From contig OZ024758.1 of NCBI GenBank assembly GCA_964016885.1, positions 21,762,001 to 21,826,000 on the forward strand: 64,000 nucleotides of DNA. Direction: 5' to 3'. This DNA comes from Eledone cirrhosa (taxonomy: Eukaryota). The position numbers were made by a program, and so were the translations under genes. Position 1 is the first letter of the stretch. Every line of letters begins with the position of its first letter. Of this stretch, positions 2,110 through 59,941 are shown one piece after another. A model generated the notes under the pieces. The model saw only the letters and a program-made list of their open reading frames with translations, did not search any database and was not told the DNA's origin.

Positions 2110-2531
2110 TAATATAAGATCAAAAAATGGTTAAAAGAGTTCCAAGTATTTTATTATGCGCATTTCAAAAACAAATATCATCATAAGATGATATCTGCGT
2201 TTTCATCAGATAAAATAGGGATACATGATATGAAGGTTAAAAAACACTTGTGAATAGTGAAGTTTTAAATCAACATATATATGTTGATTTAAATGTTGAT
2301 TTAAAACTTCACTATTCACAAGTGTTTTTTAACCTTCATATCATGTATCCCTATTTTATCTGATGAAAACGCAGATATCATCTCATGATGATATTTGTTT
2401 TTGAAATGCGCATAATAAAATACTTGGAACTCTTTTAACCATCTTTTGATCTTATATTATTTATACTCCAGTCCTACAAACTGTAGAGTGTTACTTATCC
2501 GATATTTGCATTGCTTTATTGTGCTACAATA
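2110..2531. mobile_element. HHR hairpin element, family A (Penelope-type pLTR remnant)
   Basis: Inverted arms ~2110-2276 and ~2293-2459; right arm extends ~70 nt further; flanked by (TA)n; second copy at 25650-26060. Confidence 0.8.
2352..2422 (+). ncRNA. Type I hammerhead ribozyme (family A); mirror copy on - strand at 2147-2217
   Basis: TATTTTAT-CTGATGA-[16-bp stem II AAACGCAGATATCATC/GATGATATTTGTTTTT]-GAAA-TGCGCA-TA-ATAAAATA; perfect 8-bp stem I; palindromic stem III ATGCGCAT. Confidence 0.88.
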
Positions 2532-2558
2532 TATAAATATATATATATATATATATAT

Positions 2559-2972
2559 GCAAAAGTTCTATTTAAAGTTGTTGGGATACAACAAGTAAAT
2601 ATTTTTACAACTGATATAAAGCACTCGACAAGTTTTTGGAGTAGATATACGATATTAATAAATGGAAACTATATTTATAAAACCATATTTATTTGATTAT
2701 ACATATTTCAGGGATTCCACAATAAATTATGGTATGCCTTCATCAGACAAAATACAATATATAACAGTTTTACAAATAGCTTTGACGTACCCTTTTAAAA
2801 TACAACCATTACTTTTGGAGGCTGTCTGGATAGTCAAAGCTATTTGTAAAACTGTTATATATTGTATTTTGTCTGATGAAGGCATACCATAATTTAATGT
2901 GGTATCCCTGAAATATGTATAATGAAATAAATATGGTTTTATAAATATAGTTTCCATTTATTAATATCGTAT
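2559..2972. mobile_element. HHR hairpin element, family B
   Basis: Arms ~2647-2786 and ~2833-2972; left arm extends ~90 nt further to 2559; (TA)n on both sides. Confidence 0.8.
2865..2929 (+). ncRNA. Type I hammerhead ribozyme (family B); mirror copy on - strand at 2690-2754
   Basis: TATTTTGT-CTGATGA-AGGCATACCA..TGGTATCCCT-GAAA-TATGTA-TA-ATGAAATA. Confidence 0.85.
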
Positions 2973-2993
2973 ATATATATATATATATATATA

Positions 2994-3375
2994 TTGGTGT
3001 GATCCTGTCTAATATATATATATATATATATATATATTGGTGTGATCCTGTCTAATATATATATATATATATATATATATTGGTGTGATCCTGTCTAATA
3101 TATATATATATATATATATATTGGTGTGATCCTGTCTAATATATATATATATATATATATATATTGGTGTGATCCTGTCTAATATATATATATATATATA
3201 TATTGGTGTGATCCTGTCTAATATATATATATATATATATATATTGGTGTGATCCTGTCTAATATATATATATATATATATATATATTGGTGTGATCCTG
3301 TCTAATATATATATATATATATATATTGGTGTGATCCTGTCTAATATATATATATATTGGTGTGATCCTGTCTAA
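2994..3375. repeat. 10 copies of TTGGTGTGATCCTGTCTAA separated by variable (TA)n
   Basis: Units start at 2994, 3037, 3080, 3121, 3164, 3203, 3244, 3287, 3326, 3357. Confidence 0.95.
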
Positions 3376-5059
3376 AGATTTTGAAACCACTCCCCGTTTC
3401 CTAACACAAGTAAATCCATGAGGTATTGCACTTATGAAAATAAGACAGTTTTGTCTAAGTTTCTGGCAAAGAAAACTTGTGTGAAGATGTTTATAGAGTA
3501 TTATAAAGTCTTCATTTATCTCGAGATATGAGTTTCTGTATTTAAATATTTATTTGTGATTATATGCTTAAATTATCATTAAATGCATATGTATGCTCTT
3601 TCATGGGCGTTTCATAAGTTTTTAGGTATGTGTGTGTGTGTGTATATATATATATATATATGTATATACATACATATATTATATAGATAGATAGTCAAAC
3701 CAATATATATATACACACACATATTTATACACAAATATATATATAGATATGCAATCATATATATATATATATATATATATATATATATACACACATATAT
3801 ATATACACACATACACATACATACACACACACATATATATATATATATATATATATATATATATATATACTAAATATATGTGTGTGTCTGTGTGCATGTA
3901 TGTGTGTGTATTCCCAAATGCTGAGTCTTTCATTCATTTATTTATTTATTTTGGGCGATCTCACACGACCCATCGCTCTGAATAGCTGAATAATTGAAAA
4001 CCGAATAAATCTAACACGGCTGTGTGTCTGTAGATTCTTACCCTTACTTCTAATACGCTTTAAATAACATATTATTGCATCTTATCTTTGCATTTTCTTC
4101 CTTTGGGAGGGCTCATTGTGTATTTGTAAAATACTTCATAAAAAGATTTTAATGTAGCTAGCGACAAACAGTTGAACAGAAAGAGTCGTGTAGATAGAGA
4201 GACAAATAGGGAAATGGAGAAACGGAAAGAACCTCCTAGAATAAATGTTTTTTTGTTGTTGTTTTCATTTTTATTTTTATTTTTTTTGTTTTTATTCCAT
4301 TTGTCACAACACCATAAATAGTTTTATTCAATATGTTGCAATATAAATAACTTCATTGAAAATCTCTTACCACGTATATTCTCTCAGGGTGGTTATTATG
4401 AGGCAACTTCGAAATATTCCAATAGAAATTATTAGAAACTCTATTGCAGAGCAGAAAAAAATATAAAAACAAACCCCCCAAACAAAATAATAACAATCAG
4501 CAAACAATACATTTTTACTAAAATATATATAAACAGAGAGTAACTTTAATGAAAAAACATCGCCATTATGAATTCTGTCCAGAGACTTTGGTAAAATGTA
4601 GAATTATTAGTAAAAAAAAAAACATCAGCTAATAATAATAATAATAATAATAATAATAATAATAATGATGATGATGATGATGATGCTAATGAAAATAATA
4701 ATACAATGTTATGATTTAGTGAAAACTAAATTATTATGTGAGCACACACGCAAGTTGGTTTGTGTGAATACAAAATAGAATGCGAAGAATTTGATGAGAA
4801 AATAAGTAGAATAAGAGTTATAGAGAAGTAAAAGCAAGAAAAGGACAAACAAGAGAAAGATAGGAATAAATAATTAAGGTAAATAAAATATAGAAGAATG
4901 AAACCTAAGGAAGAAGTACATAAAACTATGTCTGCAATGGCGATAAAAGTAACTTTACCTGTAAATATCGGTTAATAGAATTAGCTGAATAGTTTTCGAA
5001 TATCAGACAGTGAACTTTTATTTCCTGAATCAAAGTTCTTACGAGTCTATATAAAGAGA

Positions 5060-57180: not shown

Positions 57181-57267
57181 TTCGGCGAAAGCAGGGTAGT
57201 ACGTGGCTCTGATAAACGCCAACCAGCGTGAAACAGACTGTCAGCTTCTCTCCCTTCTTTCGCCGAA
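57181..57267 (+). ncRNA. Family C HHR (G8A variant) in element 57152-57412
   Basis: GGCT-CTGATAA-ACGC..GCGT-GAAA-CAGACTG-TC-AGCT; outer helix TTCGGCGAAAG/CTTTCGCCGAA. Confidence 0.68.
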
Positions 57268-57984
57268 AAGAAGTAAGTGACATAGTCACTACTTTAAAAC
57301 TGATAGCGTATGGTCTTCTAAATGTATTTTAATTAAACATACGGTATATTGCCAAATATACTATACACACATTCATGTATACGTCGCTATTTCAGACCAC
57401 CAATCCTAATATATGTATATATATATATATATGTGTGTGTGTGTGTGTGTGTGTGTGTGTGTGTGTGCGTGAGTATACAAATGTGTTTATATTATTTTGT
57501 ATTGGTTTGTACAGTTTAATTTTGTCAGTTTTAGAAATGCGACGGAGAGATAAAAGATTGGAATATTAGAAACAGAAGTTGGCAGTAAGAAGTTCATGGT
57601 TAACTAAATAAAAAATATATAAATTACTTTTCTTATTTGAAAAGCTATATTTATCACTTGAAATCTTCTAATGTGTTGAGAAGGAGAAGTAGCATAAGGT
57701 GCAGATAGCTTGAGAGAACATTATGGGGAAATATGAAAGAAAAAAAATGGAAGCTGGAAACTAGAAAGGCGAAAGATAAAGAAAATAAGATATTTTAAAG
57801 AATAGTTTAGCTCTAAGTTAACTTCATTAAATATAAATGAAGATATTTTAATCATAATAGTATATGGTTAAAGTTAAAACACCGTTGTTTATATGCACCA
57901 TCCTGCTATATATATATATAAGTAGTAACACAACAGTTAGTTCACCATACCGTGAACAATTGTTTCACATATATATATATATCA

Positions 57985-58118
57985 TATATTCCTGATGATT
58001 TCTCACGAATGAAACAGTTCTAGTTCTGTAGAAGATTTTCTATATTAAATATTTATATTCTGCGATGTATTGAGTACCTTACTTACTTCGATTGAACCCG
58101 GGATAAACTTAAATATAC
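57985..58118 (+). mobile_element. Family F element with HHR-like core (second copy ~59545-59680 -)
   Basis: CTGATGA-TTTC..CGAAT-GAAA-CA(G/A)T-TC in both copies; stems I and II weak. Confidence 0.45.
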
Positions 58119-58839
58119 ATATATATTTATATATATATATATAATTGTAGTTTTATATATATAGTTAATAATTGTTTCTAGTTTTGGCACAAGGCCAGCA
58201 ATTACCCAGTACATTACTGGTACTTTATTTTATCGACCCCGTAAGGGTGAAAGGCAAAGTTAACCTCGGCGGGATTTGAACTCAGAATAATGAGTTAATA
58301 ATGGTTTCTTATATAGGCAGAAGGCCAACCATTTGGGGGAGGGGAAAGTCGATTTAATCAACCCCAGTGCATTACTGGTACTTTATTTTATCGACCTCGT
58401 AAGGATGAAAGGCAAAGTGAAGCTCGGCGGGTGGTGGTTGTTGTTGTCTCAGGTCTCACTCTCTTCTTGGACAGTTGTTAGATTATATGGAGATAATTTA
58501 CATAATCAGTCGTAATCGCCAGTGTTGAGGGGGGAATTATACATACATACATGGTGGTGGCTGCCAACTCGTTTTCGAGTACGGCCACTACTTTATATCC
58601 ATGTAGGAGAACTCCTACCGAAGCGCTGAACGAGTGTGACTTTTTAGTCCAGCCAGCGACTTGAAAACTCTGGTACAAACACTACACTTGTGACAATTAT
58701 TGACACATAGTGCTGGGCCCATGGTACCATGTGACGACAAGTGCAGAGAGATCTCCATACATACATACATACATACATACATACATACATACATACATAC
58801 ATACATACATACATACATACATACATACATACATACATA

Positions 58840-59437
58840 TGAAAGAGTACTGGTGGAATGCTCCAGTAAAAACCCCAATAAAATGCAGGCATAACAGACC
58901 AGATATAATGATATGGGACAGGGAGAAGAAAACATGCACAGTAGTGGAAATTAGCTGCCCAGCAGATGCCAATATAATGTCAAAGATTAGTGAAAAGGAG
59001 AATATTTATGCAGAACTGATGAGAAATCTGCAGATACTCCACCCTGATTACACCTTCAGATTTATGCCTGTGATTATTGGGGCACTGGGGTATGTTAGTA
59101 ACTGCCTCAATACAAATCTTGAGAAGCTAGGCTTCACAGGAACAGAAAGAACACAACTAGTTAGGAAACTACAAGTACAATCCATTAATGGAACAGTAAA
59201 AATATGTAAAACATTGCAAAAATGTTGCATCTAATAACTGCATTTACACATGCACACATACAACTCAAAACATCTACACCCACACATACAATAACATCCA
59301 TATCTACACATGCATGCATACATACATATCTACCTAGTTGATGTTGTGTAAATTCCAATGAGAGAGTCTTGTGTCTATGTTAGAAACCGACTCTCTCTCT
59401 ATTGGTAAAACTTTGAGAAATTATAAAACCAGAAGAA
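58840..59437 (+). mobile_element. 3' fragment of an R4/Dong-like non-LTR element (restriction-like endonuclease), stop at 59234
   Basis: WWN..HNRPDIMIWDREKK..VVEISCP..EKENIY..PVIIGALG = PD-(D/E)xK RLE domain; (CATA)n on both sides. Confidence 0.85.
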
Positions 59438-59941
59438 CATACATACATACATACATACATACATACATACATACATACATACATACATACATACATACAT
59501 ACATACATACATACATACATACATGTGTGTACGCGTGTGTGTGTATTCCGAATTCAATCGGGGCTAACCACAGTAAGTAAAGTACTTAATACATAGCAGA
59601 GTATAAATATTTAATATAGAAATGGCTTCTACAGGACTAGAATTGTTTCATTCGATGGAAATCATCAGGATACTCTTTCGTGATGAAGATGAGGAACTAT
59701 GGTTATATATATGTAATATCTTACTTATTCACATTACAGTGCAAAGCATACGCACCAGTAAGCTACTTACATCGAGAAGAAATATATTACTTTAGGAAAC
59801 ATCAACCATCGGAAATATAGAGAATAAGCTACTTACTAAATCGTGTCCTTGAGGAACCACAGGCAAAACAAAAGTAAGAATAACACAGAGATATGACTGA
59901 GTCACGATACCAACATGTCTGCGATAAAATAGTATTATGGA

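Follow-up and report, generated by a model that had tools for sequence, protein, structure and literature searches.

A 64,000-nucleotide stretch of the Eledone cirrhosa genome (assembly GCA_964016885.1, contig OZ024758.1, positions 21,762,001 to 21,826,000; hereafter the window) contains short elements with hammerhead ribozyme motifs, lying in or beside (TA)n microsatellites. We propose that these elements are insertion products of Penelope-like elements (PLEs), formed by twin priming at two fixed sites of the element RNA, and we give this reading a probability of about 0.72. An earlier interpretation of the same DNA, made from its letters alone (the sequence-only reading), had described one dispersed system of short elements. 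The families distinguished here proved to be of different kinds, A, B and F being the ends of coding PLEs and D a retrozyme.

In the proposed route, the terminal repeat of each PLE RNA would contain a type I hammerhead, and two fixed start sites for reverse transcription would lie downstream of it. In vivo, the PLE protein would cut both strands of a (TA)n target, the two DNA ends priming at different sites, one distal and one proximal, and usually on one and the same uncleaved RNA. Both cDNAs would run towards the RNA 5' end and be joined head to head, giving an inverted pair with a one-sided tail. Priming on the terminal repeat nearest to the RNA 5' end would end in run-off at the transcription start and yield the palindromes of 150–450 bp, which are abundant, the ribozyme being copied as a passenger. 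Families D (a 322-nt retrozyme) and G (a 271-nt tRNA-containing unit) would be non-coding RNAs inserted in trans by the same machinery.

Outer ends and arms of the inverted pairs

For the count of paired ends, 153 inverted pairs of families A, B, E and I were collected, and 130 of them had both outer ends at a defined site, either the distal site or the proximal site located 71–86 nt upstream of it. A distal end was combined with a proximal one in 128 of these 130 head-to-head pairs; the remaining two had two distal ends, and none had two proximal ends. The same combination was seen in 74 of the 75 pairs that had not been selected by a bait sequence. Twenty-three apparent pairs of family C were left out, being mostly low-complexity matches of a family that has no proximal site.

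The proximal arm reached further towards the 5' end in 70 of the 128 pairs and the distal arm in 18, the two being level in 40; in 21 pairs the distal arm consisted of the tail only. Because 70 proximal arms reach further 5', a tail-primed cDNA folding back on itself is ruled out for most pairs, and a fold-back cDNA primed at the proximal site is ruled out because it could not give a tail. The median difference between arms was smaller within than between insertions in family A (1.8 versus 3.0%), B (2.0 versus 6.8%), E (6.2 versus 10.6%) and I (4.5 versus 11.6%), the arms of one insertion not being more alike in 8 of 90 pairs. We read the arms of one insertion as sharing a template. In one locus (L022, G000:C1:331859744-331862981), a distal arm of family A was joined head to head to a proximal arm of family I with a 3-nt overlap, and no upstream A sequence followed beyond the junction; this mixed junction is possibly an insertion followed by a deletion.

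These arms might also be derived from an antisense RNA that primes itself as a hairpin, the arms then being trimmed by the endonuclease so that a one-sided tail is left; the elements would still be PLE ends. Self-priming (PMC3846280) and the origin of the tail through endonuclease resolution (PMC8557442) have both been described. Such a hairpin accounts for nearly identical arms and for the short palindromes present at some junctions, and it agrees with the 110 of 128 pairs whose proximal arm extends at least as far towards the 5' end as the distal one. The 18 pairs with a longer distal arm and the two-family junction of L022 fit it poorly. Moreover, both ends match the start sites measured in vitro on the sense RNA (PMC11167929), and the 5' ends of families E and I stop at a promoter-like spacing of the sense strand. 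We therefore regard self-priming of an antisense RNA as unlikely.

5' ends of unselected copies

The 5' ends were examined in unselected copies, that is, those found in the flanks of other families' loci. In family A, 21 of 38 ends were located at −270 to −241 and one of 38 in the 10-nt bin of the ribozyme cut. In family E, 24 of 41 were at −150 to −131 and two at the cut, and the same interval of −150 to −131 held 64 of the 114 ends of family I. A TATA-like word lies 26–31 nt upstream of the pile-up in both E and I, and the pile-ups may mark transcription starts; PLE promoters within the terminal repeat have been published (PMC2377424 and PMC3846280). The ribozyme cut as the 5' boundary was rejected for A, B and E by the 5' pile-ups elsewhere.

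This result bears on a further explanation, according to which each short unit would be a non-autonomous element in its own right, bounded by ribozymes, set free by self-cleavage and copied in that form. It is true in outline for family D, which forms 322-nt head-to-tail units without a sense PLE frame upstream in 60 loci, and E may be a non-autonomous element of ~470 nt. As a general account, however, it is improbable: A, B and F are continuous with coding frames, the ends of no family coincide with the cut site, and close neighbours lie on opposite strands. The last point comes from same-family neighbours less than 1 kb apart (overlapping loci unmerged), which were on opposite strands in 44 of 48 cases; they therefore form no cis dimer of the kind that a palindromic stem III requires. 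Nor was any permuted junction found when head-to-tail, ribozyme-bounded tandem units of A, B, C, E and F were looked for. Most short copies are probably inert. The sequence-only reading was right in that one family, D, is a retrozyme; most copies, however, are truncated PLE ends bounded by two fixed priming sites downstream of the ribozyme.

Hammerhead motifs and their fold

The window has a G+C content of 33% and is rich in (TA)n. The motifs were counted with a type I descriptor consisting of CTGANGA, stem II of at least 3 bp, GAAA, stem III, TH and stem I of at least 3 bp. In its strict form, it passed 13 of the 29 CTGANGA cores of the window, compared with a mean of 0.025 (maximum 1) in 40 local dinucleotide shuffles, which is an excess of ~500-fold. 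With one core mismatch allowed, 17 were accepted against a shuffle mean of 0.95 (maximum 4). The position in or beside (TA)n noticed earlier was borne out, since a run of at least five TA units is present within 300 nt of 21 of the 22 cores, as against 43% of background positions.

Twelve of the fifteen motifs previously called well formed passed the strict descriptor (cores 2360, 2873, 25959, 37880 and 43208 on the plus strand and 2209, 25829, 27442, 32400, 32637, 37805 and 40464 on the minus strand). As for the other three, the one at 2690 (core 2746, minus strand) fails by one mismatch in stem I and is otherwise complete, the first stem I pair is broken in the copy at 33183 (core 33211), and 37547 is a chimera of two subfamilies with no stem I. 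Among the seven variants, 57992 passes strictly and 18863 and 22794 pass with C at position 4 (C4), while 57181 carries G8A, the core of 57022 is broken, 32816 stops after GAAAC and 59650 is without the 5' strand of stem I. The descriptor agrees with the cut sites predicted after 2414, 2921 and 43235.

Widening the descriptor to C4 and U3-A8 cores gave 308 matches of more than 20 recurring types in ~1 Mb of fetched sequence. The density was estimated from 325 flank pieces, each at least 700 nt from any bait: 31 strict matches were found in 273,200 bases and none in 10 shuffles, that is, ~113 per Mb. The dense and diverse population suggested by the sequence-only reading is thereby upheld. Scaled to the 3.0-Gb assembly, this would amount to about 340,000 hammerheads, a figure that is probably too high, as the flanks were taken from regions rich in repeats. 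The density is far above the minimal-motif numbers published for other genomes, about 4,000 in coelacanth and about 9,000 in Xenopus (PMC4209133); PMC7229834 gives numbers of over 6,000 for a coral and as many as 120,000 for axolotl. The 150 Rfam matches listed for the window, which are (TA)n artefacts, include no hammerhead family, and Rfam gave no ribozyme family on the family D region 32690–33420 or on a family G tandem. More than ten further hammerhead types were seen in the flanks of loci L001–L247, including a U3-A8 family with an ACCGGT stem III (13 matches) and types with C at position 4.

Covariation was examined in 71 distinct variants of an A/B-like group, which are descriptor-selected, related sequences. 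In the A/B group, stem I has 8 bp and stem II is long. Stem II positions 5–10, which are not forced by the descriptor, were paired in 56–69 of the 71 variants with several pair types, and position 4 in none (C-C in 49, C-U in 18). In 16 chosen subfamily copies of a B-like group, both sides change in 15 of 21 pairs, and the observed values of four of five measures were matched by 0 of 500 shuffles, a result that is not a probability because the sequences are related. The stems covary around a fixed core, and position 7 varies as had been noted, by subfamily (C in core 32400, A in core 32637). We consider the hammerhead stems to be under selection, which would act in master copies.

A perfectly palindromic stem III, the published mark of dimer-dependent PLE ribozymes, occurs in 10 of the 21 recurring types. 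A purine-pyrimidine pair is present at 10.1-11.1 in families A, B, C and F; a U-U stands there in D (21 descriptor matches, two main groups) and in 44 of 45 matches of E. Minimum-energy folds of A contained stems I and II and those of D the long stem I, but the complete hammerhead was not reproduced in B, C, E or F. Self-cleavage of the window hammerheads is a prediction.

The counts and the covariation also bear on fold-back DNA elements resembling miniature inverted-repeat transposable elements, or on cruciform rearrangement of (TA)n, in which the motifs would be due to chance or unselected. Long perfect inverted repeats at AT-rich, cruciform-prone sites agree with such an origin. On the other hand, fixed 3' ends, variable 5' ends and solo arms form the pattern of retro-insertion, the motifs exceed the shuffles as given above, and their stems covary at unforced positions. 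This explanation, already largely refuted, is very improbable.

Coding parents of families A, B and F

The copies of A, B and F are the 5'-truncated 3' ends of coding PLEs. All three families show 5' truncation, an inverted 5' copy, a one-sided tail and a hammerhead near the 3' end, and coding parents were found for each, in line with the earlier linking of these type I hammerheads to PLEs. The additional claim that all motifs lie in short non-coding inserts did not hold: 18863 and 22794 are in the 3' untranslated region (UTR) of a coding PLE within the window, and A and B continue upstream into coding PLEs elsewhere in the genome.

The best 40 of 1,365 candidates of family A were 98–100% identical. 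Upstream of the A end follow a 1.1-kb untranslated region and then an endonuclease-type (GIY-YIG-type) frame, which is flanked by inverted A ends in loci L155, L157 and L158. A stand-alone short interspersed nuclear element (SINE) with a fixed 5' end was ruled out for family A by these upstream coding copies, and a 68-nt family A bait intended for an unbiased search gave no match. Family B has 188 candidates, and in locus L152 its end continues upstream into a coding PLE, back to the start codon region, with inverted B ends again enclosing the whole. The single frame of family F is broken and contains a reverse transcriptase (RT) domain followed by a GIY-YIG domain (Pfam RVT_1, 4.7e-16; GIY-YIG, 5e-05); its hammerhead has C at position 4 in all four descriptor matches. 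A direct partial tandem with the frame between two terminal repeats, as in a master copy, was not found in 17 extended loci, which include few long copies.

Non-coding families D and G

By the sequence definition of that class, family D is a non-LTR (non-long-terminal-repeat) retrozyme. It is a non-coding, head-to-tail unit of 322 nt with one type I hammerhead, and its own 3' part is found upstream of the ribozyme. Of the 1,261 candidates, 40 were scored, and all of these had the unit junction; 38 of 98 arms were longer than one unit, the longest having 757 nt (2.4 units). Seven of the arms longer than one unit start no more than 16 nt below the ribozyme cut and four cross it, in a set biased by the baits and at a place with a strong hairpin. 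A PLE protein match was present in 4 of 60 loci, in none of them upstream in sense. The 3' ends of family D fall at two sites, 42 of 98 at 230–234 and 32 of 98 at 255–269, and 64 of 75 abut a TA run. Among its 30 inverted pairs, 19 of the 21 classified combine a distal and a proximal end. A D-like repeat whose core is of the U3-A8 type is also found in locus L022, as a tandem with a spacing of 321 nt.

Family G, overlooked in the sequence-only reading, is a circularly permuted unit of 271 nt without a hammerhead core. The best 40 of its 1,051 candidates were 99–100% identical, and the family is very young. It lies head to tail in L235 and L240, further copies being located in L228 and L241, and the unit junction was found in the 40 scored of 2,253 candidates. 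A tRNA-like cloverleaf (Rfam tRNA, 45.2 bits, gathering threshold 29) forms part of the unit and precedes a T5 run; ARAGORN called a tRNA in four of five G loci and in neither of two D loci. Family G has inverted arms, (TA)n flanks and two main 3' ends separated by ~37 nt, and six of the seven classified pairs (16 in all) combine a distal and a proximal end. The arms start at the tRNA 5' end in 9 of 47 cases, and many copies of this bait-biased set start about 10 nt inside the tRNA 3' end, possibly through a block at a modified base. A tRNA-derived SINE would have a 5' tRNA and a 3' poly(A) tail or a simple-repeat tail shared with a long interspersed nuclear element (LINE); in family G no such arrangement was found, and the unit is permuted and has PLE-type paired ends. 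Family G copies also occur every ~7 kb at G000:C2:314537199-314622913, suggesting a larger tandem duplication.

Families C, E, H and I

Families C and E, with 2,863 and 3,245 candidates, have ends of the same kind as those of A, B and F. The eight longest copies of E all have a (GT)n tract at their start and unrelated flanks. The PLE frames next to E copies in L153 and L154, and a 7-kb inverted E pair (L256), proved to be unrelated. With 114 arms in ~1 Mb, family I, likewise overlooked in the sequence-only reading, is the commonest unselected PLE-type end. Its copies begin within stem II of a long-stem U3-A8 hammerhead, which is whole in one locus and has the TATA-like word within stem II. The tails of A, B, E and I have a loosely similar start (48% mean identity), which is a lead only. 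One other close copy of family H was found among the loci.

Features of the window

The elements of the window are listed in Table 1. The tail of the family B pair at 37701–38270 is interrupted by a repeat (38020–38213) and resumes at 38213–38270. This ~180-nt repeat has many copies and tandem arrays (units of 107–183 nt), among others at 538–710, 6462–6873, 9493–9686, 13441–13750, 53512–55260 and 59940–60560; as the copy at 38020–38213 splits the tail, it is therefore younger than the family B pair.

An intact-looking frame of 879 aa at 46917–49556, with the Pfam domains RVT_1 and zf-RVT, belongs to a LINE of another kind. A frame of 176 aa at 58704–59234 had no Pfam match and presumably resembles the C-terminal part of a retrotransposon with a restriction-like endonuclease, to judge by a motif. 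Two minisatellites, with 10 copies of 167 nt (10433–12161) and 13.6 copies of 122 nt (51592–53253), contain no hammerhead core.

Table 1. Elements of the window, with their positions and hammerhead cores.
Element	Positions	Strand	Remarks
Family G, left arm	1797–1954	−	Part of the 271-nt unit; no hammerhead core; tRNA part absent here
Family G, right arm	1953–2097	+	Like the left arm, ends at the distal site; the pair departs from the rule of one end at each site
Family A, inverted arm	2104–2278	−	Ends at proximal site; core 2209; predicted cut 2155
Family A, arm with tail	2293–2531	+	Core 2360, predicted cut after 2414; 3' end of coding Hydra-like PLE (L155, L157, L158)
Family B, arm with 83-nt tail	2559–2834	−	Core 2746, one stem I mismatch
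Family B, arm with proximal end	2833–2977	+	Core 2873, predicted cut after 2921; 3' end of coding PLE in L152
Family H, inverted pair	8746–9192	8746–9010 −, 9031–9192 +	~97-nt tail on one side, in (TA)n; no hammerhead accepted by the descriptor
Family F, inverted 5'-truncated arm of coding PLE	18701–20204	−	~42-nt tail; core 18894, C at position 4
Family F, long arm	20205–22944	+	Broken RT + GIY-YIG frame ~20394–22416, 3' UTR, core 22797, proximal end
Family A subfamily, arm with tail	25639–25883	−	Core 25829
Family A subfamily, proximal-end arm	25894–26064	+	Core 25959
Family B subfamily, solo with tail	27257–27506	−	Core 27442
Family B subfamily, solo	32310–32421	−	Core 32400, C at position 7
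Family B subfamily, solo	32531–32682	−	Core 32637, A at position 7
Family D, inverted arm	32824–33098	−	Core 32840 cut off after GAAAC
Family D, one unit length (326 nt)	33098–33420	+	Distal-site end; core 33211, extended stem I, U-U at 10.1-11.1
Family I, inverted pair	37109–37304		Junction 37167; 5' ends inside stem II of U3-A8 hammerhead; 79-nt one-sided tail
Chimera, subfamily C2 and 3' part of family C	37503–37698	+	Core 37547, no stem I
Family B, inverted pair	37701–38270	37701–37832 −, 37858–38025 +	Cores 37805 and 37880
Family I subfamily, solo with tail	39657–39787	+	
Family B subfamily, solo with tail	40280–40528	−	Core 40464
Family C, minimal hammerhead	43163–43327	+	Core 43208, ACGT stem III, predicted cut after 43235
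Family I, inverted pair	45010–45181		Junction 45070; one-sided tail
Subfamily C2	57000–57086	+	Broken core near 57022
Family D, copy	57152–57411	+	Core 57209 carries G8A
Family E, copy	57989–58108	+	Starts at 5' pile-up site; core 57992, U-U at 10.1-11.1
Family E, copy	59525–59670	−	Core 59668, 5' strand of stem I missing

Discussion

The twin-priming reading draws on the DNA sequence of this organism together with in vitro work done elsewhere, and several observations weigh against it. In 23 of the 153 pairs, an end lies at neither site, and the windows that define the end classes (±15 nt; the last 14–28 nt) were set after the data had been seen. The similarity of the arms could come from later gene conversion. 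The junctions have an overlap of at least 2 nt in 53 of 156 cases and an insert of at least 2 nt in 67. The 5' pile-up of family B is broad (16 of 64 ends at −280 to −261), and that of family A has no clear TATA word. In vitro, the two strands did not differ in start site (PMC11167929). No coding parent was found for C in 30 loci and two extended ones or for E in 68 loci and five extended ones, and no protein partner was identified for D or G. The parent frames of A and B had no Pfam match at E ≤ 0.05, and a PDB profile search gave RT matches at E 0.23 only; their assignment to PLEs comes from motifs, a weak match to F (E 7e-05) and Atlas neighbours with GIY-YIG and RT.

The closest experimental system is the Anolis Poseidon element (PMC11167929), whose protein, a predicted dimer, cuts and extends both strands of an AT-rich target in vitro and starts at two internal RNA sites that match and define the tail. 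Ribozyme cleavage was not required there, and, in agreement with this, the ribozyme is not needed for the insertions described here. The Poseidon work reports neither inverted copies nor a strand bias, whereas in this genome the two sites are used one per end; since no strand difference in the start site was seen in vitro, that work leaves the one-each rule unexplained.

The minimal hammerheads of metazoan PLEs (PMC4209133) likewise have the type I fold, a palindromic stem III and a U3-A8 variant, and they too include thousands of single motifs from truncated PLEs and opposite-strand pairs 100–700 bp apart. Unlike these hammerheads, the A/B group has an 8-bp stem I, a long stem II and a position 4 that is never paired, and the U-U of D and E replaces a highly conserved G-C at 10.1-11.1. 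PLEs of the Hydra clade (PMC8557442) share with the A/B parents a C-terminal endonuclease without CCHH and with CxxC and CxH around E and N, as well as (TA)n targets and the hammerhead. The CxCX5C linker of that clade is complete in A only, and its RW-basic motif was found in B with RWR replacing RWK. The DKT motif was not seen in the A/B parents, and the likeness to the clade is one of motifs. The tails are 83–86 nt long here, as against 30–40 bp in the PLEs described there.

Family D resembles the known non-LTR retrozymes (bioRxiv 10.64898/2026.07.22.740005; PMC7229834) in its head-to-tail unit of ~320 nt, its one type I hammerhead with an extended stem I and its thousands of copies, and differs in that no long arrays were seen. 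In these sources, the link between retrozymes and PLEs consists of co-occurrence and sequence likeness; family D adds the footprint of PLE insertion, namely two fixed ends 25–31 nt apart, inverted arms and (TA)n. Family G is similar to the SINE-like SM-alpha repeats of schistosomes (PMC6765202) and to non-autonomous Chlamys elements such as MRC1 (PMC8557442) in being short, tandem-prone and non-coding with an RNA polymerase III-type part and PLE-type ends. It differs from them by its whole tRNA-like cloverleaf and by the lack of a hammerhead core and of a poly(A) tail.

It should be noted that PLE hammerheads, opposite-strand pairs, inverted copies, one-end tails, (TA)n targets and retrozymes as PLE dependants have already been published (PMC4209133; bioRxiv 10.64898/2026.07.22.740005; PMC8557442; PMC7229834). 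What is new is the regularity of the paired ends and the two non-coding passengers D and G, the rest being mostly of a known kind. A literature search that took in the main text of the preprint found no insertion-footprint evidence for retrozymes. In a search that covered few subscription papers and no older PLE reviews, we found no tRNA-containing PLE-dependent element, no cephalopod hammerhead survey and no twin-priming account for PLEs.

During L1 retrotransposition, twin priming occurs when both target strands prime on one RNA, which inverts the 5' part of the copy; it is occasional, and the second site is used through chance homology. The 21 tail-only pairs have this same geometry. Unlike in L1, both sites are fixed here and the arms usually overlap. 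We tentatively suggest, as a claim that is somewhat more doubtful than not, that twin priming is the normal insertion route of these PLEs, explaining both the inverted copy and the one-sided tail, and that the same machinery moves D and the ribozyme-free G, a SINE-like class dependent on Penelope proteins; some 300,000 hammerheads would result as a by-product, giving this genome the densest ribozyme landscape of those in the compared literature.

The origin of the inverted repeats and one-sided tails of PLEs is stated to be open in PMC8557442, and the rule counted here (128 of 130) is directly testable in the reconstituted reaction. The U-U and C-C variants are natural, replicated hammerhead material for ribozyme biochemistry. 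Family G also bears on the large unclassified SINE fraction in some mollusc annotations: PMC13282606 gives 893 unclassified SINE families among the recently active ones, to which a link from this species is a possibility. Finally, to judge by family G, the PLE route may be open to short RNAs that have no ribozyme, which bears on the importance of the hammerhead for the spread of PLEs.

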